From the NCBI GenBank assembly GCA_037446835.1, contig JBBIHV010000004.1:832-64831 (forward strand): a stretch of 64,000 bases of DNA, written 5' to 3'. Shown here piece by piece: positions 3,891 through 29,472 of the stretch. A program made the position numbers and the translations under genes. Source of the DNA: Sunxiuqinia sp. GTDB taxonomy: Bacteria; Bacteroidota; Bacteroidia; Bacteroidales; Prolixibacteraceae. How positions within the stretch are numbered: position 1 is the first letter of the stretch; each line of letters starts with the position of its first letter. A model generated the notes under the pieces. It was not told the DNA's origin and made no database searches. It worked only from the letters and a program-made list of their open reading frames with translations.

Positions 3891-6505
3891 TCAGACAACT
3901 ACTGATATCGATACTTGTTTTCATGCTGCCGGTATTTGGGTCGTCCCAGAACCGGGGCATAAAAGTGGAAGCCGCCAACCAGCCGCTCAATCGGGTACTT
4001 TTGCAGTTGCGCGAGCAGTACGACTTTCAGTTTTCGTACAGCGATACCGAACTTTCACAATATACGGTTACCGTTTCCAAAACTTTCTTTTCAAAAGAAG
4101 AAACGCTCAGGTTTCTCTTCGATGGACTTCCATTCCAGGTAAAAAAAACTGGAGAGGTATTTATTATCATTCCTGAAAAAAAAGGCTTGAAAGAAGCTCC
4201 GAAAAAAGGGCACACCCACATTACCGGGCAAATTATTGAAGCAGGTTCGTCGGAGCCACTCCCCTATTCGCAAATCCTGATCAACAACCACCCGCTTTTT
4301 GCCGATGTCACCGGAAATTTCAATTTTTCAGCCTCGGCCGACAGCACTTTCCACGTCCGCATTTCGCACCTGGGATATTATATTTTCGACACGCTGGTTT
4401 ATGCCGGGTTCAGCAAAAAGTTCAGGCTGATCCCGGCAACCTTGACCCTTCCCGAAGTCCTTGTCAGGAACAATGACGTTGAAAGGGCAACAATGGTCGG
4501 CGAAAAACCCGGAAAAATTACCATCAACTCGAACATTGCACGCTTTCTTCCGGGGCAGGGCGACAATTCGGTTTTCAACCAAATCCGCCTGATGCCCGGA
4601 ATTCAGGCAGCAGGCGAACAGTCGAACGACGTGCTGATTTGGGGAAGTTACGAGGGCCAGAGCCTGATAACTTTCGACGGGTTTACCCTGTTTGGTTTAA
4701 AAAACTACAACGATAACATCAGCGTTGTCAACCCGTTTCTGGTTAAAAATATTGAGATCCTGAAAGGTGGTTTTGAAGCCAAATACGGCGACCGCGTTGG
4801 TGGGATTGTGAACATCACCGGCAAAAACGGGAACACAAAAAAACCGGTTTTCAGCCTGAACATTAACCCCACGACCATAAACGCAATGGCCGAAATCCCT
4901 TTATTCAAAAAATCATCGCTGTTGGTGGCTTACAGGCAAACTTACTACAACCTATACAATTCAGGCGATTTCAATATTTTTGCCCCAACACGCTCACTTC
5001 CAAAAAATCATGGGAACTCCGTTAACCATCACTCCATCGCGTTCGATATGGAAGTTTTCCCCAACGATTATCAGTTTAGGGACCTGAACCTGAAATACAG
5101 TTTCAATCTCAACAACGGTGACCAGTTTTATGTGAGCCTGTATGGTGGCGGCGATCATTTTAGTATGGATGCCGCGGCCAACATTGTTCGTGAAATGAAT
5201 GGAAAATCAATGATGATGAACCCAACTCCCCTGACAGTCAGCCTGCTGAACAAGGAAGAAAACTGGCAGCTCGGTTTTTCGGCATTCTATCATAAAAAAT
5301 GGTCAGACAGGCTGCTGACCAAATTCGTTGTTTCGCATTCCGATTTTTCGAAAACCAGTTCAGATTCTGTGCAGTCGGTAAATTCAACTACCTACAACCT
5401 TTACAGCAACGAACGGATGCGAACCAGAAACACCGCCAGTGAAAATTCACTGCGGATTGAGAATATCCTGAACTTTTTAAACGGCCACCAGCTCGAATTT
5501 GGTGGAGGATTTTACAGCAACGAAGCAAAAATTGACCTCAGTGGCAATTTAACCGGAAACTTGCCAATCAACACACTCGACCAATATTTAAACCAGCGGG
5601 GCTACGCCTACGTTCAGGATTATTTACCGCTTGGCGACCGTCTGATCTTGAAATCAGGAGCGCGAATAAACCGGATCACCGGCAAAAACCAAATGATGTT
5701 CGAACCCCGGTTGAGCGCCACGTATAAACTGGCCGAAAATCTGAAAATCAGCGCTTCCTGGGGGCAGTATCATCAATTTATCTTTAAGGTCCCGACCATC
5801 GACATGGGCCAGAACTACACCTATTTATGGATAACCGGAAACCAAAACATCCCGGTATTGAAAGCGGCGCAATGGGTCAGTGAAATCAATTATTCCGAAA
5901 ACAACCTGACAATTAATCTTCAGGCCTATTATAAACCAATCGGCAACATGACTGAACGGGTGTACGAGCAGCGTGTGGTGAAAGGCCACAACTTAAGCGG
6001 CTATTATCCCTATTTCGGCGATGCCAAATCGTTTGGGATCGACCTGCTAGCAAAAAAAGATTTTGGTAAACATTCGGTCTGGGCCTCCTATACTTTGAGC
6101 AAATCGCTCGAACGTTTTGCCCCGCAAAACCAGTCTCTGCCTGATTATTCGCTGGCCCCGCAGGATCAGCGGCATGAACTAAAAGTTGCCGGGCTATTCA
6201 ACATTGGTCATTTTTACTTGTCGGCCAACTATGTTTACGGTTCAGGTTTGGCGATTTTGAAGAAAGTATTTCCCGATGCGACCAATGTAGCCTACAACCG
6301 GGCCGATGCGTCAGCCACCTATAAATTTACCCACAAACAGATTAACGGCGAACTTGGTTTGTCGGTGCTGAATGTGTTCGACACCCAAAACCTGCGGTAT
6401 GCCAACCTCAAAATTTTCAGGCTTACTTCCGATCTGGGCGATTTCAGGGTTTATTCAAGCTCCGTACCTTTCACCCCGGTTTTATTCCTGAAAATGGTTT
6501 TCTGA
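3887..6505 (+). CDS. TonB-dependent receptor with N-terminal signalling (STN-like) domain
   Basis: N-terminal STN-like segment, CarboxypepD-like domain, plug motif IEILKGGFEAKYGDRVGGIVNIT, C-terminal Phe; overlaps fecR stop (ATGA). Confidence 0.88.
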   Translation: MIRQLLISILVFMLPVFGSSQNRGIKVEAANQPLNRVLLQLREQYDFQFSYSDTELSQYTVTVSKTFFSKEETLRFLFDGLPFQVKKTGEVFIIIPEKKGLKEAPKKGHTHITGQIIEAGSSEPLPYSQILINNHPLFADVTGNFNFSASADSTFHVRISHLGYYIFDTLVYAGFSKKFRLIPATLTLPEVLVRNNDVERATMVGEKPGKITINSNIARFLPGQGDNSVFNQIRLMPGIQAAGEQSNDVLIWGSYEGQSLITFDGFTLFGLKNYNDNISVVNPFLVKNIEILKGGFEAKYGDRVGGIVNITGKNGNTKKPVFSLNINPTTINAMAEIPLFKKSSLLVAYRQTYYNLYNSGDFNIFAPTRSLPKNHGNSVNHHSIAFDMEVFPNDYQFRDLNLKYSFNLNNGDQFYVSLYGGGDHFSMDAAANIVREMNGKSMMMNPTPLTVSLLNKEENWQLGFSAFYHKKWSDRLLTKFVVSHSDFSKTSSDSVQSVNSTTYNLYSNERMRTRNTASENSLRIENILNFLNGHQLEFGGGFYSNEAKIDLSGNLTGNLPINTLDQYLNQRGYAYVQDYLPLGDRLILKSGARINRITGKNQMMFEPRLSATYKLAENLKISASWGQYHQFIFKVPTIDMGQNYTYLWITGNQNIPVLKAAQWVSEINYSENNLTINLQAYYKPIGNMTERVYEQRVVKGHNLSGYYPYFGDAKSFGIDLLAKKDFGKHSVWASYTLSKSLERFAPQNQSLPDYSLAPQDQRHELKVAGLFNIGHFYLSANYVYGSGLAILKKVFPDATNVAYNRADASATYKFTHKQINGELGLSVLNVFDTQNLRYANLKIFRLTSDLGDFRVYSSSVPFTPVLFLKMVF

Positions 6506-18439: not shown

Positions 18440-19777
18440 CTAAAACAGGTAATTCAGACCAATATACGTTCCTGAAGTGCCATCCTGTTCGTTGGGCGCA
18501 ATCCCGTAATCGGCAGCGATCACAAAATTTTCGTTCATCACAATTCGTAATCCGGCGCCATAGGATGAATGAAATTTTTCGGCGCCCCAGTTAAAATAAT
18601 TGGGTTGATCGGCCAATGCAGAAGTTAGTTTACTTTTAACATCAACCTTTTTGGTTACTTTTCCGAAGTCGGTGAAGGCATTCAATCCGATGTAAAAATT
18701 ATTGTTGATCCAGTGAAAACGGACAACTTTCCAACGCATCTCCACATTTCCGTATAAAAATCCATCACCAACAACTCGGTTTCGAAGTATTCCGCGCAAG
18801 GTTTTTGCACCCCCCAACCCTTCAGAAAGCGCACCGGTCAGCACCGAAGTAATTACCTGCGACTGGTAATAAAACGGAGTGTGCCCGGCAAGAGTAGTCT
18901 GGTAGGCAAGCCGGTAAACCAGCGAAAGTTTTTTAGGAACAAGCGTAAAATACTCGCGGTGAATGAGGCTTAATTTCAGAAATGAACTTTCGGCTCCCAG
19001 AAATGACGGTGCGCCTTCAAGTACGGCTTCGGTCCAGACACCCTTCATCGGATTGGGCCGGTTATCGCGGCTGTCATATACCATTCCGCCTTTCACCGTA
19101 GGTATAAATCCGCCATCGGCTTCCTTTGCCGAAATAATTCCCCATTGCTGATAGAGATCGTATAAACCAGGCACATCAGGCAAAACCTTGCTCCCCGATT
19201 TCCCTTTGTTCAGTTTCGATAAATTTACATCGCCAATTTTAAAATTCTGAAGGTTGAATCCGGTGGTCCACCGAAAATGATCACCAGCCAATTTTCCCTG
19301 AAGATCGACTTTAAAACGGAACAGCTTCCGGTCGTATTTATAGAACATGCGGGTTTTATAAACATTGACAGGCTGGGTGTCATCAATCCAATTTGGCTGA
19401 TAAACCGATTCGTATCCGTTAAACCCATAAAAATCGTAGGCCTGATCCGACAGGTAACTCAGGTCAACCGAAGTTTGCAAGCCTTTGATCAGCTTATCCG
19501 AATCATAATAAAACCGGTTGATGCCGCTGCCTTTCGTAAAACGCGAAACTTCGAAATAAAGCGAATGGTTGTATTTCGGGAAGCGGGTTCCGTCGCCATA
19601 ATCGTACAAATTCACCAACGCGCCATACTGAAAACCCAGGTCGGTATCGAACGTGATGGTTGGCAAAGCACCAAAATTCCAGTTTTTCTTGATCAGTTGT
19701 TCATCCTTTTTTTCGGTTTGGGCGAACATCGAAAGCGAAAGACAAATGTACACGACGGAGAGAAATTTTTTTTTCAT
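18440..19777 (-). CDS. Omp85/BamA-TamA family outer membrane beta-barrel (no obvious POTRA domains)
   Basis: Signal peptide; YDSRDN, GLGGAKTLRG, YGAGLR, C-terminal LNYLF. Confidence 0.82.
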   Translation of the reverse strand: MKKKFLSVVYICLSLSMFAQTEKKDEQLIKKNWNFGALPTITFDTDLGFQYGALVNLYDYGDGTRFPKYNHSLYFEVSRFTKGSGINRFYYDSDKLIKGLQTSVDLSYLSDQAYDFYGFNGYESVYQPNWIDDTQPVNVYKTRMFYKYDRKLFRFKVDLQGKLAGDHFRWTTGFNLQNFKIGDVNLSKLNKGKSGSKVLPDVPGLYDLYQQWGIISAKEADGGFIPTVKGGMVYDSRDNRPNPMKGVWTEAVLEGAPSFLGAESSFLKLSLIHREYFTLVPKKLSLVYRLAYQTTLAGHTPFYYQSQVITSVLTGALSEGLGGAKTLRGILRNRVVGDGFLYGNVEMRWKVVRFHWINNNFYIGLNAFTDFGKVTKKVDVKSKLTSALADQPNYFNWGAEKFHSSYGAGLRIVMNENFVIAADYGIAPNEQDGTSGTYIGLNYLF

Positions 19778-20885: not shown

Positions 20886-22622
20886 CTAAAAATCTTGTGC
20901 CAGTGGGAGCAAAAACCTGAAAACACTTCCTTTGGCAACCGTGCTTTCAACCCAAATTTCGCCACCATGCTTGATAACCATATCTTTACAAAGCAACAAT
21001 CCCAATCCAGTTCCTTTTTCGTTGGCCGTTCCGGGTTTCGATTTTAGATTGGTAATATCAAATAGTTTTGCAATTTCGTCTGGCGACATCCCAACTCCCG
21101 AATCTGAAACAGAGACAATTACCTTTGTATCTTCTTTTTCGATTTTAATTTGAACCGATCCTCCCGGATTTGTAAACTTTATGCCGTTTACCAGAAGATT
21201 TCGTAAAATCGTCTTCAGCATAAGTTCATCGGCAAAAACCAACACCGGTTCAGAATCCTGAAAAGAAACCGAAATATTTTTCTTATCGGCAACCAGCACG
21301 TGATCATTAACCAGGCTTTGGCACAATTCGTTTAGATTAATATTTTCGGGCCTGAATGGAAATTGGTCGGATTGGACCCGTGCCCAAATTAACAATTCAT
21401 CGAGCAAATTATAAGAAACCTTGGCCGAATTATAGATGCGGTCCACATACATTTGTAATTCATCGCTCCGCAATTCTGTCAGGTTTTCAGCCAGCAATTC
21501 GGAAAAACCAAGTAATGCGTTGAACGGACTTTTCAGGTCGTGGGCAAGAAGCGACACGAAACGATCTTTATTCTTGTTTACCTTTTCTAATTCTTCGTTC
21601 AATTTTTGAATTTGCATGGTTTTAGTTCGCGCATTTATCAGGCCAACAACCAAAATAAAAAGTAAAACGCTGATAATTAAACCATTTGCAAGCACAATTA
21701 AAATCCTCGCTGGCAGAAAGTAACCTTGGGTGTTATATCCCGAAAATTCGAGTGTCCAAACATGACCGTTAAAATTCGTGGGGATTTTCAGGTTTTGAAT
21801 TGAGCGTGAAGAACGACGGACCTGAAAAACCGAATCACTGTCAAACATCAGGTTATCAGCAATCAACGCTTGCCTGTCGTACACTTTTATCCGGAGTTTT
21901 TTATAATCCCATTCTCCCAGCACACTTTTCATTAATTCGTTCATCCGGTAAGTAGTGAAAACCCAGCCGATGATCGCTTTTTTACGCGACGCGGAGTCAG
22001 CAGGGGTCGGGCCACTTTTAAAAACAGGGGCAAAAACGATCATGCCCGACGGGTCGGCTTTTCCCGATTCCTGAATGATCGAAATTTTATCGGTAATTGT
22101 GGCCAGATCCGTGTTGCGCGATTGTTCCATGGCAAAGCGCCACCTGGGTTCGGTGTAACCATCAAATCCCAACGGCTGCAAAATGTGTTTTGTATCGGGT
22201 TCAATATAAATAACTGCTGTGTAAAAATCCCGGTCTCCTTCAGGAACGATTTTGAAATGAGGAAAGCCTCCGTTTCGGATTTGTTTTTCAAGGTGATTTA
22301 TATTCATTTTATCAACAATAACCGAATAGCCAATGCCCCTGATACCCGGTAACTCAATGTGCAACCTGTTCAAAGACTGGAATTCATGCCATTCTTTGTG
22401 CGAAATGGAATCCGAACTCGACACAAAAGCAGCGCTGCTATATAAAATCTGGGCATTGGCTGTTAACCGTTTCTGTATTTTGCCTTCAAACGACAAGCAT
22501 AGTTTTTCAAAACCCTGCCCATCCAATTTTTTTTGATCCTGAAAAGCAGAGTAAGAAATTACAAAAGTTACTGCCAAACCAAGTAGTAAAATTAGTATCG
22601 GAAATAATCGAATTTTTAACAT
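20886..22622 (-). CDS. CHASE-domain sensor histidine kinase (orphan)
   Basis: Two TMs flanking a CHASE domain (LGFDGYTEP); H-box LAHDLKSP; N-box RNLLVNGIKF; DSGVG; GTGLGL. Confidence 0.92.
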   Translation of the reverse strand: MLKIRLFPILILLLGLAVTFVISYSAFQDQKKLDGQGFEKLCLSFEGKIQKRLTANAQILYSSAAFVSSSDSISHKEWHEFQSLNRLHIELPGIRGIGYSVIVDKMNINHLEKQIRNGGFPHFKIVPEGDRDFYTAVIYIEPDTKHILQPLGFDGYTEPRWRFAMEQSRNTDLATITDKISIIQESGKADPSGMIVFAPVFKSGPTPADSASRKKAIIGWVFTTYRMNELMKSVLGEWDYKKLRIKVYDRQALIADNLMFDSDSVFQVRRSSRSIQNLKIPTNFNGHVWTLEFSGYNTQGYFLPARILIVLANGLIISVLLFILVVGLINARTKTMQIQKLNEELEKVNKNKDRFVSLLAHDLKSPFNALLGFSELLAENLTELRSDELQMYVDRIYNSAKVSYNLLDELLIWARVQSDQFPFRPENINLNELCQSLVNDHVLVADKKNISVSFQDSEPVLVFADELMLKTILRNLLVNGIKFTNPGGSVQIKIEKEDTKVIVSVSDSGVGMSPDEIAKLFDITNLKSKPGTANEKGTGLGLLLCKDMVIKHGGEIWVESTVAKGSVFRFLLPLAQDF

Positions 22623-22981
22623 GATCCCCTTTTCTTATCTAAATTTAAGGAATTTCATTCAGAAAAACAACTAAATTTCTCCGAAACAACTTAGCCCGAA
22701 ACGCCTCAGGTTCCCATTTTCAGGAAAAGTAAATTCCTACATAAATGCTGAAAACGCCACATTTATCCTACCTAAACGTAGGCTTTTAAAAAGCTGAAAA
22801 AAATTAAACTACTCAGGATAAATCACTTCTGAAAATTGGTACGACACTTGACCCGGTGTTTTCAAACTTTATACCCATTCAATTGGCTTTACCGGAAAAC
22901 CAGTTGGCGATGAATTAAAAATATACTCCGGAATTAAACGAAAAGATCAGGAATACAAGTCATTAACTAATATTTTCAAAA

Positions 22982-23224
22982 ATGAAACTCAGTGCACGGA
23001 ACCAACTGAAAGGCAAAATCCTGAAAGTGGATGAAGGTTTGATTACTTCAAAAGTGATGCTCGACCTTGGAAACGGGAACATTATTTCGGCCATTATCTC
23101 CAAAGATGCCATTGCCGATTTAGACCTGAAACCGGGCGACACGGCCTTTGCCATCATCAAATCGACCGAAGTGATCATCGGGACTCCCTGCGATTGTAAC
23201 GACGGAAAATGTAATTGCCATTAG
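22982..23224 (+). CDS. Mop/molbindin-type single TOBE protein with Cys-rich tail
   Basis: MKLSARNQLKG, SAIIS, AIIKST molybdate-binding signature; tail PCDCNDGKCNCH. Confidence 0.9.
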   Translation: MKLSARNQLKGKILKVDEGLITSKVMLDLGNGNIISAIISKDAIADLDLKPGDTAFAIIKSTEVIIGTPCDCNDGKCNCH

Positions 23225-23226
23225 CC

Positions 23227-23559
23227 ATGATCGAAGTGGAATGCCATCTCTCAATAAAAAAAGACGGGACCTGTTTTTTAGGCCCTGTGAAGACCGAACT
23301 TCTGAATGAAATCAGCAGAAGCGGCAGTTTGAACAGCGCTGCCAGGAACCTGAAAATTTCGTACCAACATGCCTGGACAATGATTGACGAGATGAACCGT
23401 GTTGCCCCTGAACCGCTGGTCATCAAACAGCGGGGAGGCGCAAATGGCGGGGGCGCTGAAATTTCGGGTTATGGCAAGAAAATCCTTCAGGAATACCGGA
23501 TAATCCAGGCACAGGTGAATAAAGTTGTCGATCAGATCAACGTTGAAATCAACCTGTGA
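23227..23559 (+). CDS. modE: ModE-type winged-helix DNA-binding domain without TOBE domains
   Basis: LGPVKTELLNEISRSGSLNSAARNLKISYQHAW...RGGANGGGAEI; ATG 23227, 2 nt after the TOBE gene stop. Confidence 0.85.
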   Translation: MIEVECHLSIKKDGTCFLGPVKTELLNEISRSGSLNSAARNLKISYQHAWTMIDEMNRVAPEPLVIKQRGGANGGGAEISGYGKKILQEYRIIQAQVNKVVDQINVEINL

Positions 23560-23571
23560 TTTTTTTTGAAT

Positions 23572-23599
23572 ACCGTTATCTAATTTTGTTTATATCGAA
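23572..23599 (+). promoter_or_regulatory. ModE-type operator overlapping a Bacteroidota sigma-A -7 element
   Basis: ACCGTTATCTA-N6-TTTATATCGAA matches 16 of 20 defined positions of ATCGnTATATA-N6-TATATAnCGAT; TAATTTTG (TANNTTTG) at 23581-23588. Confidence 0.75.
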
Positions 23600-23612
23600 A
23601 ATTTATATTCGG

Positions 23613-24104
23613 ATGAAAACAACAATAAGTTACCAACCAATCGGCATCATCCGGACACCGTTTGTATCCGTTTCGGAAATGCCGATTCAACCCAGCGGGG
23701 CAAATGGCGCAAAAGGGATTATTGAACTAAACCCGGATTTGACGCTGGGGCTTTTCGATCTGGAAGGCTTTTCACACCTCATTTTAATTTACCATTTGCA
23801 TTTGGTTTCAGGATACAAACTTTCGGTTGTCCCATTTATGGACGATCGGCCACACGGCATTTTTGCCACCCGCGCTCCTGCCCGGCCCAACCCGATCGGG
23901 ATCTCGATTGTTGAACTCAAAAAAATTGAAACCAATTTGCTTTACATCGAAGGGGTTGACATGCTGAACGGTACGCCGTTGCTCGACATCAAACCGTTCT
24001 TTACCAAATTCGACAACCGGCCAGTGGCCAAGGCTGGTTGGCTTGAAGGAAAACACCACGCAGATATTATGAAAATAAAATCGGACGACAGGTTCGGCCA
24101 ATAA
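23613..24104 (+). CDS. TrmO/TsaA-like SAM-binding protein, single N-terminal domain (163 aa)
   Basis: PIGIIRTPF, GIFATRAPARPNPIG, DMLNGTPLLDIKP; ATG 23613 preferred. Confidence 0.88.
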   Translation: MKTTISYQPIGIIRTPFVSVSEMPIQPSGANGAKGIIELNPDLTLGLFDLEGFSHLILIYHLHLVSGYKLSVVPFMDDRPHGIFATRAPARPNPIGISIVELKKIETNLLYIEGVDMLNGTPLLDIKPFFTKFDNRPVAKAGWLEGKHHADIMKIKSDDRFGQ

Positions 24105-24194
24105 AAAAAGTCCGGAACCCAATCGCTGCAAATGATTTAGATATTCCGGACAATTAAAATTCATCAAAAATTTTAACGCTTAAAAGTACAAAAA

Positions 24195-25496
24195 ATGAGA
24201 AAGGTTTACGTATTGGCAATCACTGGATTGCTTTTTTTGCTCAGCTTTTCGGAAAGCTACGGGCAAGTTTCGATTGATGCCGAGTTTCGGCCACGTTCAG
24301 AGTTCAGGTCAGGATTTAACCAGCCATTGCCTGATACACTAAAATCAGCATTGGTGACGATGCAACGTACCCGCCTGAATTTCAACTACAAAAGCGGTGT
24401 TTTAAATGCACGTTTAGTTTTACAGGATGCCCGTGTATTTGGCGAAACCGACACCAAACAACCGGCAACGGCAACAACCGGAAGTATTGGCATTTACGAA
24501 GCATGGACCGAATTATTGTTGTTTTCGGGTATCCGTTTAAAAATTGGCCGACAGGGTGTCCAATTTGAAGATGGCCGTTTGTTCAGTCTTTCGCCCTGGA
24601 GCAACACCGGGAACTCGCACGACCTGGCCCAGTTGGGGTATTCAGCACCGGGGCTGGAGGTTCAGTTCGGGTACGCCTACAACAATCAGAAAGCGCTGAA
24701 TGCCGACACCTTGTATTACAGTGTCAGCAAAATGTATAAACAACTGGCCTTTTTGCACCTGACAAAAACAATCGCCACCGGTCTCGACCTGAGTTTGCTT
24801 GGCGTGGACGAAGGGTTTGAGAAAAGTAAAACCAACCAGGATTTGTATCACCGATACACGACTGGTGGAACTTTGCAGCTAAAGAACGACAAGTTGCCAC
24901 TTGGCTTTTTTGCAACCGGCTATTATCAATTCGGGAAAAGTACTCAAACTGTTGACCTGGAGGCCTGGCTGCTGGCCTTAAAAGCTACCTGCACGTTTAC
25001 CGATAAAATCGGGGGCCTCGCCGGAGTTGATTATTATTCAGGTTCCGGAAGTACTTTGGCTTCAACTAAAACCAACACATTCAATAAGTTGCCTTATGGG
25101 GTGAACCATTCGTTCAACGGGTACATGGAATATTGGGGAACTTTGCCCAAGGGCGGTTTGGTCAATTACTATGGCGGTGTTAGCCTGAAGCTGAGCAAAA
25201 AACTAAATTCCGACATTACTTACTATGCCTTCAGCCTGGCCGAGAACATGAAAATTGGCACCAGACCGGTGCAGAAAAATATTGGTTCGGAATTGGATCT
25301 CGCGCTGAATTACAAGTTCTCGCCCGAAACAGCCATTCAATTTGCCTGGTGCGGCTATTTTGCCAACGCCGGAACCAACATGCTAAAATATAAGACGGCA
25401 ACGGTTGACACCAGGTTTCCGCAATTTGCTTACGTGATGCTCACCATCAAACCACAACTATACAAAACTCCGGCGCCGCTGGAATCAAAAAAATAA
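24195..25496 (+). CDS. Alginate export family outer membrane porin
   Basis: Signal peptide; EFRPRSEFR, QRTRLNF, QDARVFG, IYEAW, KIGRQ, NHSFNGYMEY, GSELDL. Confidence 0.8.
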   Translation: MRKVYVLAITGLLFLLSFSESYGQVSIDAEFRPRSEFRSGFNQPLPDTLKSALVTMQRTRLNFNYKSGVLNARLVLQDARVFGETDTKQPATATTGSIGIYEAWTELLLFSGIRLKIGRQGVQFEDGRLFSLSPWSNTGNSHDLAQLGYSAPGLEVQFGYAYNNQKALNADTLYYSVSKMYKQLAFLHLTKTIATGLDLSLLGVDEGFEKSKTNQDLYHRYTTGGTLQLKNDKLPLGFFATGYYQFGKSTQTVDLEAWLLALKATCTFTDKIGGLAGVDYYSGSGSTLASTKTNTFNKLPYGVNHSFNGYMEYWGTLPKGGLVNYYGGVSLKLSKKLNSDITYYAFSLAENMKIGTRPVQKNIGSELDLALNYKFSPETAIQFAWCGYFANAGTNMLKYKTATVDTRFPQFAYVMLTIKPQLYKTPAPLESKK

Positions 25497-25519
25497 TTCT
25501 TCAAAAAAAAGGAAAGGAA

Positions 25520-26263
25520 ATGAAAATGAAAAAAGTTAACATATTCTTGCTATTGATCTTGTTTTGTACAAGTCTGCAAGCTCAAACAGTAAAGGTTGCG
25601 GCAGCGGCAAATCTCCGGTTTGTTTTCGATGAAATTAAAAACAGTTATACCCAAGCCAATCCGAAAGCCGACATCACGGCGAATTTTGGTTCGTCCGGGG
25701 CGCTCCTTCAGCAAATCCTGAACGGCGCCGAATTCGATATTTTTATGGCTGCCGACAATACTTTTCCTGCAAAGTTGAAAGATCAGGGTGCAGCTTCGGG
25801 CGAAATAAAGACGTATGCGCTGGGAAAACTCGTTTTGTGGAGCAATGTGGCCAATGTTTCCGATGGGCTGGATGTGCTGACCAGGCCTGAGGTAAAACGC
25901 ATTTCAATTGCCAAACCCGATTTGGCGCCTTATGGCGACCGGGCTGTTGAATGCCTGAAAGCTGCCGGGTTGTACGACAAAGTGAAGGACAAAATCATTT
26001 ATGCCGACAACATTTCGCAAGCCGCCCAGTTTGCACAAACCGGCAATGCCGAGGTCGCATTTTTGGCCATGTCGTTAACCTTGACCCCCGACATGAAAGG
26101 CTCTGTTTACGTGATCAATCCCAAATCGTATAAGCCGGTTGAACAGGCAATGGTACTGGTTAAAAGCTGGAGAACCAATCCCGAAGCAGCTAAATTCATG
26201 AAATTTATCTTGAGCGATAGCTGCAAACCAATTTTCGAGAAATTCGGTTATATCGTTCCTTGA
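25520..26263 (+). CDS. modA: Molybdate ABC transporter substrate-binding protein
   Basis: AAAANL, FGSSG, DIFMAA, LAPYG, ADNISQA. Confidence 0.95.
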   Translation: MKMKKVNIFLLLILFCTSLQAQTVKVAAAANLRFVFDEIKNSYTQANPKADITANFGSSGALLQQILNGAEFDIFMAADNTFPAKLKDQGAASGEIKTYALGKLVLWSNVANVSDGLDVLTRPEVKRISIAKPDLAPYGDRAVECLKAAGLYDKVKDKIIYADNISQAAQFAQTGNAEVAFLAMSLTLTPDMKGSVYVINPKSYKPVEQAMVLVKSWRTNPEAAKFMKFILSDSCKPIFEKFGYIVP

Positions 26264-26342
26264 AGCCAGGGAAAAAGGAAAAGGGAAAATCTGAACATTT
26301 CTAACAACCAATGACTTTTTCCTGTTCGTAAAAAGCGCAACC

Positions 26343-26744
26343 ATGAATAAATTACCAGGTACGATCACTCAAATTCAGCAATCAGGGGCTATTCTTTTAG
26401 TCGATGTGGATGTGGATGGGCACGGTTTTTCAGCCTTGCTCATCGAATCGGCAATTCGCCCCGAATGGCTGAAGCAAGGGAATTTGGCCGACCTTGTTTT
26501 TAAGGAAACCGAAGTTTCACTGGCCAAAAATCTTTCAGGAACAATCAGTATGCGAAACCGGATGAAATGTACTGTCCTGCATATCGAACGCGGTGAACTT
26601 TTAAGCAAAATCAGCCTGAAGTTTCAGGAATACATGGTGGCATCGGCAGTTACAACCCGCGCCGTCGAGGCACTTCAGCTTAAAATTGGCGACGAAGTGG
26701 AAGCGCTGGTGAAAGCCAATGAGGTTTCGTTAATGAGAAAATAA
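26343..26744 (+). CDS. Tandem TOBE domain protein
   Basis: Two TOBE repeats ending VFKETEV and LVKANEV; SMRNR. Confidence 0.85.
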   Translation: MNKLPGTITQIQQSGAILLVDVDVDGHGFSALLIESAIRPEWLKQGNLADLVFKETEVSLAKNLSGTISMRNRMKCTVLHIERGELLSKISLKFQEYMVASAVTTRAVEALQLKIGDEVEALVKANEVSLMRK

Positions 26745-26747
26745 TAA

Positions 26748-26794
26748 ATTTGAAAATGTGTCGATTTGAAAATGAATCCTGCACATTTTCAAAT
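26748..26794. repeat. Intercistronic hairpin inside the mod operon
   Basis: ATTTGAAAATGTG (26748-26760) / CACATTTTCAAAT (26782-26794), perfect 13 bp inverted repeat; extra ATTTGAAAATG copy at 26764. Confidence 0.7.
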
Positions 26795-26819
26795 CTCCAA
26801 AACTTCAAATTAAAAAAAT

Positions 26820-27500
26820 ATGGATGCAACATTCGCTCAAACCATTTGGCTCACCATCAAACTGGCTGTTTCAACAACGGTCATTTTAGTTGTCATCGGC
26901 TTGCCTTTCTCGTATTGGCTGGCGTACACCAAGGTTAAAATTAAACCGCTGGTTGAAGCGCTGGTGAGTATGCCGATGGTTTTGCCACCTTCAGTAATAG
27001 GTTATTACATGCTGTTAATTTACAGTCCGCGCAACGGATTTGGCGAGTGGCTTGGCCGTGTTTTCGATGTTCGGCTGGCATTTTCGTTCGAAGGCGTGCT
27101 TATTGCATCCGTTATTTTCAGCCTGCCATTCATGGTCCAGCCGCTGCATAACGGGTTGCGCTCATTGCCTGAAAGTTTGCGCGAAGCCTCGTACACGCTC
27201 GGAAAATCGAGGATGCAGACTTTTTTCAGGGTGTTGCTGCCGAACATTAAACCATCGGTCATAACAGCTATTGCACTTACTTTTGCGCACAGCATTGGCG
27301 AATTCGGGATAGTGCTGATGGTTGGCGGGAACATGCCCGGCGAAACCCGCGTGGCTTCAATTGCTATTTACGACGAAGTTCAGGCACTCAATTTCGAAGC
27401 AGCCAACCGTTATGCACTGATTTTATTTCTGGTTTCGCTACTGTTGCTGACAACCATTTACAGTGTGAATAAAAAGTACGACTCATGGAAAATGATGTAA
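26820..27500 (+). CDS. modB: Molybdate ABC transporter permease
   Basis: MPMVLPPSVIGY, SLPFMVQP, EASYTLG, HSIGEFG, GETRVASIAIY. Confidence 0.96.
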   Translation: MDATFAQTIWLTIKLAVSTTVILVVIGLPFSYWLAYTKVKIKPLVEALVSMPMVLPPSVIGYYMLLIYSPRNGFGEWLGRVFDVRLAFSFEGVLIASVIFSLPFMVQPLHNGLRSLPESLREASYTLGKSRMQTFFRVLLPNIKPSVITAIALTFAHSIGEFGIVLMVGGNMPGETRVASIAIYDEVQALNFEAANRYALILFLVSLLLLTTIYSVNKKYDSWKMM

Positions 27501-28372
27501 TCCGGATCGAGGTTGAAAAGATGATGCACACGGCAAATGGCCCGATGAACCTTTCGGTCAGTACCAGTATTCAGAAAGGCGAACTGGTTTCACTTTTCGG
27601 GCAATCCGGAACAGGAAAAACAACACTTTTGCGAATCTTGTCCGGACTTATTCCTCCGGATAAAGGGTTGGTCAGGTTTGGAAAGACAGTTTGGTACGAT
27701 TCGGAAAAAAAGATCAACATCGCCCCTCAAAACCGAAATATCAGTTTTATGTTTCAGGATTACGCCCTGTTCCCGAATATGACGGTGGAACAAAATATCA
27801 GGTTTGCCCAGCCACAGCGCAACGATGGTGCCCTGAAAGAATTGCTTGGCATTTTCGGGCTGAACGAATTCCGCAAACGGAAGCCCAACGGATTATCGGG
27901 CGGACAAAAACAGCGGGTGGCCCTGGCCCGCGCCCTGGCCCGGAAACCGCAATTGCTGCTGCTCGACGAACCGCTCTCGGCGCTTGATGCCGAAATGCGA
28001 AACACACTTCAGGACGAAATCGCACAGGCCCATCACATGTCGGGGGTAACTACCCTTTTGGTCAGTCACGATTTGAATGAAGTTTTTCGGCTGGCAGACC
28101 ATGTCCTCTGTATCGAAAACGGCACGATAACCCGCAGCGGAAAACCGGATGAGGTCTTTTCGGACAGCAGTATCAGCGGGAAAGTGCAGATTACCGGTCA
28201 AATAGCGCGTATCGACCAACAGGGCATCATGAACATTGTGACAGTCATTTCAGGAAACAACCAGATTATCAGGGTTATTGCATTCGACAACGACCTGGAG
28301 AACCTGAAAATTGGCGACAGTGTTATGGTTTTTTCAAAGGCTTTCAACCCGATTATCAGCAAATTAAAGTGA
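27485..28372 (+). CDS. modC: Molybdate ABC transporter ATPase with C-terminal TOBE
   Basis: Walker A GQSGTGKTT, LSGGQKQR, LLLLDEP, SHD; ends FSKAFNP. Confidence 0.92.
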   Translation: MENDVIRIEVEKMMHTANGPMNLSVSTSIQKGELVSLFGQSGTGKTTLLRILSGLIPPDKGLVRFGKTVWYDSEKKINIAPQNRNISFMFQDYALFPNMTVEQNIRFAQPQRNDGALKELLGIFGLNEFRKRKPNGLSGGQKQRVALARALARKPQLLLLDEPLSALDAEMRNTLQDEIAQAHHMSGVTTLLVSHDLNEVFRLADHVLCIENGTITRSGKPDEVFSDSSISGKVQITGQIARIDQQGIMNIVTVISGNNQIIRVIAFDNDLENLKIGDSVMVFSKAFNPIISKLK

Positions 28373-28395
28373 ATATACAAACTTGCCAAAATGAA

Positions 28396-28432
28396 GAATC
28401 GCCTTTAAAACCAATGGTCCTAAAGGCGATTC
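28396..28432. terminator. Hairpin between convergent modC and YncE genes
   Basis: GAATCGCCTTTA / TAAAGGCGATTC, perfect 12 bp stem. Confidence 0.7.
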
Positions 28433-28455
28433 CCAATTTGGGCGTAAACTCCGGG

Positions 28456-29472
28456 TTATTTCACCGGCTCAATATCCAGCACTTTGAAGGAATTTGGTTT
28501 TACCGGACGCCTTCCGGTGCCTTCTCCAAATTCGCCTCCTGAAACATAAATATGATGAGTCGTTTTATCAACCGTGATGGTCCGTGCACCTGGTTGAGTG
28601 GCGATACTTTCCAAAGCTTTATATTTATTGGCACTTTCTTGCTGAATGACAGAAATGATCCCTTCGCCGCAAGATGCAAAAATGCGTTTGGTTGCCGGAT
28701 CAAAAGCCACGCCATCGCAGCCTTTTCCAATCGGGGCCGAGGCAATTACTTTTCCTGAAACGGGATCAGAAACAACCATCAATTTGTTGCTGCATACCGA
28801 AAACAAGCGGTTGTTTGCCACATCGTATGCCAATCCTGAAGGTTCTTCGCCAGGGGCAATCGACCAAGTTTTTTCAACTTTCAGCGTAGCCGAATTGATG
28901 ATGGCCAGGCTGCTTTTATCCTCGATGTTTACAAAAACTTTGCCTTTGTCATCGGTTTGTGCGAATTCGGGTTTTCCGGCCAGCGGAATGGTTGCAACGA
29001 TTTTGTCGGTTGTAGCGTCAATCACGGTTGAATTGCTGGTCCTTCCATTAAACGTAAATACTTTCTTCGAGAACGGGTCATACAAAATGGCATCCGGGTT
29101 TTTGCCGGTACCCTGAACTCTCCCAATAACTTTAAAATTCTTCAAATCGACCACCAAAACCGACGAATCCCTTCCGCAGGAAATAAATGCCTTGTTCAAG
29201 TCGTTGGCAACGGCTATACCATGCACACCACTGGTTTCAGGAATTACAGCAATTTCTGCCGACGTTTTAAGGTTAACAACATTTACCTGCGAACTGTGCG
29301 AAACAAACAGATTTTGGTTTGCCTCGTCAACCGACAAATAATCCCAGCCGCCATCACCGGTCAACTGGATGGTTTTGGCAACTTTGTATTCCGGCTTCTG
29401 TGCCTGAACATTTTGAAACATCATGCAAACCATGACGATCATGATTGCTGAAAACAAGGTTTGTTTTTTCAT
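28456..29472 (-). CDS. YncE/YVTN-type beta-propeller protein, exported
   Basis: Signal peptide; GDGGWDY, GVHGIA, GKNPDAI, GKPEF, GARTI. Confidence 0.85.
   Translation of the reverse strand: MKKQTLFSAIMIVMVCMMFQNVQAQKPEYKVAKTIQLTGDGGWDYLSVDEANQNLFVSHSSQVNVVNLKTSAEIAVIPETSGVHGIAVANDLNKAFISCGRDSSVLVVDLKNFKVIGRVQGTGKNPDAILYDPFSKKVFTFNGRTSNSTVIDATTDKIVATIPLAGKPEFAQTDDKGKVFVNIEDKSSLAIINSATLKVEKTWSIAPGEEPSGLAYDVANNRLFSVCSNKLMVVSDPVSGKVIASAPIGKGCDGVAFDPATKRIFASCGEGIISVIQQESANKYKALESIATQPGARTITVDKTTHHIYVSGGEFGEGTGRRPVKPNSFKVLDIEPVK

Follow-up and report, generated by a model that had tools for sequence, protein, structure and literature searches.

The passage of molybdate across the outer membrane is usually ascribed to unspecified porins. 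Besides general porins, the routes for molybdenum include the catecholate “molybdophores” of Azotobacter and, reportedly, a route in Pseudomonas aeruginosa in which ModA secreted by a type VI secretion system (T6SS) acts with IcmP; to our knowledge, none of these relies on a dedicated passive channel that a mod operon encodes and ModE regulates. Among channels for other solutes, OprP and OprO are phosphate- and diphosphate-specific porins, 16-stranded trimers of family PF07396, and in OprP the anion is led along a row of arginines. The Occ channels import amino acids and organic acids, and we know of no Occ channel tied to an oxyanion ATP-binding cassette (ABC) importer. Here we describe a gene at positions 24195-25496 (+) of a 64,000-nucleotide stretch of Sunxiuqinia sp. 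DNA (contig JBBIHV010000004.1; the whole stretch is called the window), which encodes a member of the “alginate export” family directly upstream of modA. We conclude that its product is probably a ModE-regulated outer membrane channel that feeds molybdate to ModA, a reading supported by comparative and regulatory evidence.

An earlier note on this DNA, made from its letters, had remarked that a dedicated molybdate porin is not well described in Bacteroidota. The open-access full-text literature that we searched agrees with that remark: it describes no molybdate, tungstate, nitrate, or nitrite porin of such a kind and contains nothing joining “alginate export” with molybdenum or nitrate as such a channel. 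Transcriptomics in Bacteroides thetaiotaomicron placed BT1414, labeled an “alginate export family protein,” within BT1414-18, a co-regulated operon that contains nrfHA, and the authors gave it no role (PMC10434189).

The barrel protein, its operon, and its operator

The open reading frame is complete, starts with ATG, and specifies 433 amino acids. Its sole Pfam match is PF13372, Alginate_exp (E 2.7e-12; 46.6 bits against a cut-off of 25.2), which spans residues 29 to 383 and model positions 7 to 370 of 395; an NCBIfam scan of the protein gave no match. It is the single PF13372 copy found in its own genome (3.88 Mb, 95% complete). The N terminus, MRKVYVLAITGLLFLLSFSESYG/Q, has the form of a Sec-type signal, with a predicted peptide at residues 1 to 23 (24195-24263), and residue Q24 is conserved family-wide. 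Two arginine-rich motifs follow, DAEFRPRSEFRSG at residues 28 to 40 and MQRTRLNF at residues 56 to 63, and the arginines R32, R34, R58, and R60 do not vary among 22 relatives and keep a conservation of at least 85% over 102 family members.

An AlphaFold2 (AF2) model built on those 22 relatives (mean pLDDT, 83.6; pTM, 0.81) predicts a barrel of the AlgE type, in which we count 18 strands by our own reading of the DSSP string; a helix occupies residues 2 to 21, and strand 1 starts at residue 23. The best Foldseek match of the model is AlgE (E 5e-21). AlgE also ranks ahead by VIA (Z 33; root mean square deviation, 3.0 Å over 360 residues), followed by the OprD/Occ substrate-specific uptake channels at Z 28 to 29. 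Identity in the structural alignment with AlgE is only about 14%, and a sequence profile of the barrel matched nothing among PDB sequences, even at E 10, so that the link to AlgE rests on the Pfam match and the predicted fold. Two long loops, residues 122 to 140 and 282 to 321, hold the most conserved motifs among the 22 relatives, and from the DSSP pattern of the model these loops appear to be extracellular.

The barrel gene lies in a transcription unit with the order ModE-type operator, trmO-like gene, barrel gene, modA, a gene for a free di-Mop protein, modB, and modC, all genes being on the + strand. The genes modA, modB, and modC follow it at close spacing in the same direction; the same-strand gaps are 90 nucleotides from the trmO-like gene to the barrel gene and 23 nucleotides from the barrel gene to modA. 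No polysaccharide synthesis or export genes occur within about 7 kb on either side, so the barrel is not accompanied by the synthesis and modification genes of the alg8/44/K/X/G/L kind expected of an AlgE exporter. In these respects the earlier note had read the locus well: the exported 433-residue beta-barrel, the arginine-rich N-terminal motifs as it quoted them, the 23-nucleotide gap, and the lack of polysaccharide synthesis genes nearby were all found, and the structure prediction that it had proposed as a check returned a model closest to AlgE by both Foldseek and VIA.

The putative operator lies past the stop codon of modE-N and ahead of the start of the trmO-like gene and follows the pattern CGnTAT-N12-ATAnCG, which we derived by tallying inverted repeats upstream of the barrel across mod-linked loci. 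This pattern matches the outer portion of the consensus for ModE boxes of the E. coli type, atCGnTATATA-N6-TATATAnCGat (PMC545781). The exact operator has one match in the window, against 0.06 expected, and three sites in the genome; among 113 loci, the exact box was found only in 14 mod-linked loci, in the window's own copies (L001 and L002), and in one other locus (L083). When at most one mismatch and spacings of N11 to N13 were allowed, a box lay between modE-N and the barrel gene in 17 of the 18 mod-linked loci checked, and many mod-linked loci had two boxes 40 nucleotides apart. This position behind modE-N makes the barrel gene the first or second gene after a ModE operator. Inside the window's operator, TAATTTTG (23581-23588) fits what we take to be the Bacteroides -7 promoter consensus, TAnnTTTG, and a promoter element so placed suggests that ModE may repress by occluding the promoter, with transcription predicted to begin just downstream of 23588. 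Scans for sigma-70 promoters and for terminators, which do not cover Bacteroidota promoters, gave no excess over shuffled sequence. Another operator candidate, ATAAATG-N12-CATTTAT, a 7-nucleotide inverted repeat upstream of the small mop gene, was rejected after it was found in no related locus.

The channel activity, inward direction, substrate selectivity, and molybdate-dependent repression that we infer, together with the roles assigned to the arginines and loops, would combine as follows. The barrel gene, modA, the mop gene, and modBC would be co-transcribed from a ModE-controlled promoter. When molybdate is scarce, a split ModE (ModE-N together with free Mop proteins) would release the operator overlapping this promoter, and vacating the operator would permit transcription of the operon. 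The product, presumably a monomeric channel of AlgE/OprD architecture, would insert into the outer membrane and admit MoO4(2-), and probably also WO4(2-), to the periplasm, the anion passing along the conserved arginine cluster on strands 1, 2, 3, and 5 and by the long conserved loops 122-140 and 282-321. ModA would bind the anion and ModBC would import it, the molybdenum most likely being destined for nitrogenase.

Conservation of the mod linkage and of oxyanion partners

Our genome collection gave 80 barrel loci, and trees were built with IQ-TREE (61 barrels, with SH-aLRT support) and FastTree (112 barrels). Both contained a 24-row clade with 100% support, within which path lengths reach about 1.8 changes per site (IQ-TREE) and 19 of the 24 barrels are linked to ModA. 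The mod-linked members, at 30 to 77% barrel identity, have the order modE-N, operator, barrel, modABC and belong to the Prolixibacteraceae, Paludibacteraceae, Dysgonomonadaceae, Bacteroidaceae, Azobacteroides, and Symbiothrix. The nearest loci are those of Prolixibacteraceae metagenome-assembled genomes (MAGs), at 76 to 77% barrel identity, and the origin of the window in Bacteroidota is therefore correct. Homologs at 37 to 77% identity come from Prolixibacteraceae, Paludibacter, Dysgonomonas, Symbiothrix, Azobacteroides, and other Bacteroidales, and those at or above 37% retain modE-N, barrel, modA, modB, and modC, the exception being a termite-associated MAG (L049) in which the barrel gene adjoins a PstS-like gene instead. 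Two Bacteroides MAGs at 30 to 32% barrel identity keep the same mod order, and in Azobacteroides (L050) the genes are rearranged to modA-barrel-modB-modC with the linkage kept.

Beyond this clade, two genomes that belong to a different class of the phylum (G049 and G429), with barrels about 26% identical to that of the window, have the arrangement barrel-modA-modB(-modC); in G049, ModA, ModB, and ModC all exceed the NCBIfam cut-offs. Barrel paralogs in the same two genomes adjoin nrfHA or nirK. In a clade with 100% support, three barrels are encoded within wtpA-barrel-wtpB-wtpC, with WtpA above its NCBIfam cut-off; in two Bacteroidales MAGs (L065:3345-7226 and L075:4869-8705) the barrel gene stands between wtpA and wtpB of this tungstate/molybdate operon. 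Three separate associations can thus be told apart: one in the Bacteroidales mod clade, one in the lineage of G049 and G429, and one in the wtp clade. Because the mod-linked examples are for the most part relatives of each other, the counts overstate independence. One further locus, in G271, was rejected as mod-linked: its barrel gene lies 5 kb from modABC in a divergent operon with a major facilitator superfamily (NarK-like) gene.

Neighboring genes for oxyanion handling are found in other branches of the family as well. By marker searches, an oxyanion-handling gene lies within 3 kb of the barrel gene in 83 of 111 loci: ModA in 19, WtpA in 3, PstS-like proteins in 5, and NirK, NrfHA, NapA, NrtA, NarK-like proteins, Hcp, and RIC together in 56. 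The NapA, NrfH, and NrfA partners exceed curated cut-offs, and in a clade with 97% support, 24 of 25 barrels adjoin nitrate or nitrite genes. ModA, WtpA, PstS-like proteins, NrtA, NapA, NrfA, and NirK are periplasmic proteins, and the periplasm is where an outer membrane channel would deliver substrate to such partners. That distant relatives unlinked to mod genes adjoin other oxyanion systems fits reuse of the fold for small anions. The proposal in the earlier note that the AlgE fold serves here as an oxyanion porin gains from these partners, as it does from mod synteny and the ModE-type operator, and its concern that orthologs might usually be unlinked to mod genes did not hold, given the 19 of 24 barrels in modE-N/modABC loci.

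Separately, the one exact ModE-type box found outside mod-linked loci lies in a Flavobacteriales MAG (L083:4326-10206), at 5722-5745, upstream of barrel-napA and beside a divergent modE-N-like gene. The arrangement seems to place a nitrate-clade barrel and a periplasmic nitrate reductase together under control by molybdenum.

A demand for molybdenum can be traced in the genome itself. Outside the window, contig C11:39422-45697 carries four nitrogenase D/K/E/N-family genes in a row, whereas the genome, at 95% completeness, has no match for PF00384, PF02738, PF02730, or MoeA, and no molybdopterin oxidoreductase, xanthine-dehydrogenase-type enzyme, or tungsten AOR enzyme was found in it. With nifDKEN found and molybdopterin enzymes and MoeA not, nitrogenase is the likely molybdenum consumer, and molybdenum seems to be used in this organism solely for nitrogenase. 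Nitrogenase-family genes are present in 8 of 10 other tested genomes with a mod-linked barrel, 7 of which have the four-gene cluster, and in G460 a nitrogenase-type cluster abuts the mod locus. This last mod-barrel locus (L038; C1, approximately 3192-3211 kb), directly beside its nifDKEN-type cluster, also has two tandem modA genes.

Other features of the mod locus

Features of the mod locus in the window, with the evidence for each
Feature	Position	Strand	Evidence
Small single-TOBE (Mop) protein, 80 aa, Cys-rich tail ending PCDCNDGKCNCH, upstream of operator	22982-23224	+	PF03459 TOBE, E 8.2e-15
modE-N, helix-turn-helix half of ModE without Mop domains	23227-23559	+	TIGR00637 ModE_repress, E 6.9e-25; NF007957, residues 3-102
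Putative ModE-type operator CGTTATCTAATTTTGTTTATATCG (CGnTAT-N12-ATAnCG)	23574-23597		Pattern match, conserved in mod-linked loci
TrmO/TsaA-like single-domain gene, 163 aa, first gene behind operator	23613-24104	+	PF01980 TrmO_N, E 8.7e-38
Barrel gene, predicted outer membrane AlgE-fold protein, 433 aa	24195-25496	+	PF13372, AF2 model, Foldseek, VIA
modA, periplasmic molybdate-binding protein	25520-26263	+	TIGR01256, E 2.6e-59, 200.8 bits vs cut-off 62.5
Free di-Mop/TOBE protein, 133 aa, equals C-terminal half of ModE	26343-26744	+	TIGR00638 Mop, E 2.5e-17
Intercistronic RNA hairpin, di-Mop/modB	26747-26811	+	Minimum free energy -18.1 kcal/mol, z -6.5
modB, permease	26820-27500	+	TIGR02141, E 2.4e-67, 226.6 bits vs cut-off 182.6
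modC, ATPase, short form, 16-nt overlap with modB	27485-28372	+	PF00005 ABC_tran, E 6.6e-35

The regulator itself, ModE, is split over three genes: the single-TOBE protein, the helix-turn-helix-only ModE-N, and the di-Mop protein encoded between modA and modB. The ATG of modE-N lies 2 nucleotides past the stop of the small mop gene, and its product scores 87 bits on TIGR00637, below the model cut-off of 98.5. NF007957 aligns residues 9 to 129 of the di-Mop protein with ModE positions 140 to 258. The leader of ModA is of the signal-peptidase-I type (...SLQA/QTVKV), with no canonical lipoprotein signal, and we therefore take ModA for a standard binding protein of the periplasm and not for a lipoprotein at the cell surface. 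ModC falls under the 285-bit cut-off of TIGR02142 (E 7.1e-60; 203 bits), and Pfam and NCBIfam scans reported no C-terminal Mop/TOBE domain in it.

The trmO-like gene has the same position in two related loci (L032 and L034) and is found downstream of modC in two others (L036 and L051), a recurring placement at mod loci that suggests a molybdenum-related role over tRNA methylation. The hairpin ahead of modB has a perfect 12-bp stem, and none of 200 shuffled sequences folded as well; it may stabilize the transcript or partly terminate it, and in this way set how much barrel and ModA is made relative to ModBC. In L032, 9 nucleotides separate the Mop and ModB matches, which leaves no room for such a hairpin. 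An Rfam scan of 22000-29000 detected no molybdenum cofactor (Moco) riboswitch and no other known RNA, the only hits being a spurious microRNA match of a palindromic hairpin.

The wider neighborhood encodes HMGL-like, Omp85-family, and DUF218 proteins, a CHASE histidine kinase, a beta-propeller, an esterase, a cytochrome b561, and an aldose epimerase. The Omp85-superfamily barrel gene, at 18440-19777 (-), lies a few kilobases upstream of the mod locus and has no evident tie to it.

Alternative explanations, significance, and known systems

Several observations weigh against a molybdate channel. Five members of the mod clade (L043, L047, L049, L058, and L071) lack a mod link and adjoin a PstS-family binding protein or unrelated genes. 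In a sample of 401 genomes across the phylum, a family member occurs in 75, modA in 132, and both in only 7, and in one family of that sample (f25), all 87 genomes have modA and none of the 87 has the barrel. The barrel is no general requirement for molybdate uptake, and the co-occurrence with modABC that the earlier note had named as a check is seen within the mod clade but in few genomes of the phylum sample. Within the protein, the acidic residues E30, E36, D78, E102, D143, E366, and D368 are conserved alongside the arginines. Over mod and non-mod clades together, conservation reaches at least 85% for R32, R34, R58, R60, R80, R119, and R128, and likewise for E36, D78, D143, E366, and D368. 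Few residues distinguish the mod clade from the nitrate/nitrite clades, and the differences are subtle, so that the specificity of the barrel for its substrate may be low; the positions peculiar to the mod clade number only nine (P44, S131, S136, N164, G225, P235, W314, Y388, and Q410), three of which lie in the long conserved loops (S131 and S136 in 122-140, W314 in 282-321). Lumen-facing strand residues comprise 13 basic and 13 acidic, a net charge of 0 by a crude and unreliable count of alternate-residue parity, which does not bear out the electropositive pore on which the earlier note had drawn. Finally, the best fits to the Pfam model among Bacteroidota (L142 to L149; E 1e-53 to 1e-85) adjoin hydrolases instead of anion-related genes, namely Amidohydro_3 genes in four loci and isochorismatase, sulfatase, or peptidase genes; these may form another branch of the family for organic substrates, and the wider family is accordingly not solely anion-related.

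The shared arginine cluster, the nine positions separating the mod from the nitrate/nitrite clades, the neutral lumen count, and the mod-clade members beside PstS-family proteins or unrelated genes would all suit a mod-regulon pore with little selectivity, whose induction just raises outer membrane permeability at low molybdenum. We consider such a pore unlikely, because partner type is strongly structured on the tree, where 12 label changes occur and shuffles give 30.7 (nitrogen oxyanions, 24/25; WtpA, 3/3; ModA, 19/24), which is the pattern expected if each clade is tuned to its own partner, and because clade-specific substitutions occur in the two conserved loops, the probable site of the constriction. 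It is quite improbable, in our judgment, that the barrel instead carries a chelate of molybdenum, some organic compound, or a product for export, and that it stands in the operon for another need connected with molybdenum or nitrogenase. AlgE, the only characterized family member and the closest structure, is an exporter, the hydrolase-linked members suggest organic substrates, and the trmO-like gene in the same transcription unit is unexplained; set against these are the lack of polysaccharide, siderophore, or chelator synthesis genes within about 7 kb, the failure to find an alginate lyase (PF05426) in the genome at its 95% completeness, the family-wide partnership with proteins of the periplasm whose task is to bind or reduce inorganic oxyanions, and a Pfam scan that detected in the barrel no TonB-dependent plug domain, which is usually needed for chelate uptake. 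Nor can we give much credence to a passenger without any molybdenum role, kept near modA by the shared ancestry of close genomes, an account that is very improbable even though a single order, Bacteroidales, supplies most of the mod-linked examples, which are not independent. The linkage lasts at 30 to 43% barrel identity and through the change of gene order in L050, it recurs in the distant G049 and G429, it is found again with another transporter in the wtpABC clade, and in most loci the operator lies directly ahead of the barrel.

The reading of the barrel as a ModE-regulated molybdate channel leads to a broader claim, on which we find the balance even: that a large Bacteroidota branch of the “alginate export” family consists of partner-matched oxyanion uptake channels rather than exporters, with clades for molybdate (ModABC), tungstate/molybdate (WtpABC), PstS-type partners, and nitrate/nitrite (NapA, NrfHA, NirK, and NrtA), the gene in the window being a ModE-regulated molybdate gate for nitrogenase in diazotrophic Bacteroidales. 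If this is true, the set would represent the missing outer membrane gates for inorganic anions in bacteria without classical general porins, the database label “alginate export family protein” would change its meaning for these genes, and their presence in nitrate, nitrite, molybdate, and tungstate loci would be explained. The related pores would offer a natural series for studying how small oxyanions are discriminated. For molybdate in particular, a channel gene under putative ModE control in a mod operon is a concrete candidate for the outer membrane step, and its carriers are anaerobic nitrogen fixers of sediments and of termite and animal guts, where molybdenum supply can limit nitrogenase.

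Among known systems, AlgE of P. aeruginosa (PDB 3RBH, 4AFK, and 4AZL) shares with the barrel its Pfam family, its predicted fold, and conserved arginines on the N-terminal strands. Unlike AlgE, the barrel is encoded in a molybdate ABC-importer operon and not in a polysaccharide cluster, with no alginate genes found, and we propose for it an inward direction and a small oxyanion as substrate; in AlgE, moreover, loops L2 and T8 close an electropositive pore lined with arginines, and T8 is a long periplasmic loop, whereas the turn of the modeled barrel that corresponds to T8 appears short, a comparison made from the DSSP pattern and not residue by residue. BT1414 of B. thetaiotaomicron carries the same family label and is likewise encoded in an operon for a periplasmic oxyanion-using enzyme, in its case nitrite reductase rather than ModABC; nrfHA-linked barrels on our tree fall in the nitrate/nitrite-linked clade, BT1414 itself not being among the rows. 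The functional logic proposed here would be that of OprP and OprO, starvation-induced anion channels of the Pseudomonas Pho regulon that feed the binding protein of an ABC importer, in an unrelated family and architecture (the barrel has no match to PF07396 at E 0.01 or better) and with ModE in place of PhoB as the regulator. The OprD/Occ channels of Pseudomonas and Acinetobacter have the same barrel architecture and serve the uptake of specific small solutes, a likeness that is structural only, there being no match to PF03573 in the Pfam scan. The barrel in the window belongs with AlgE in sequence and fold but most likely works like OprP or the OprD-type specific uptake channels.

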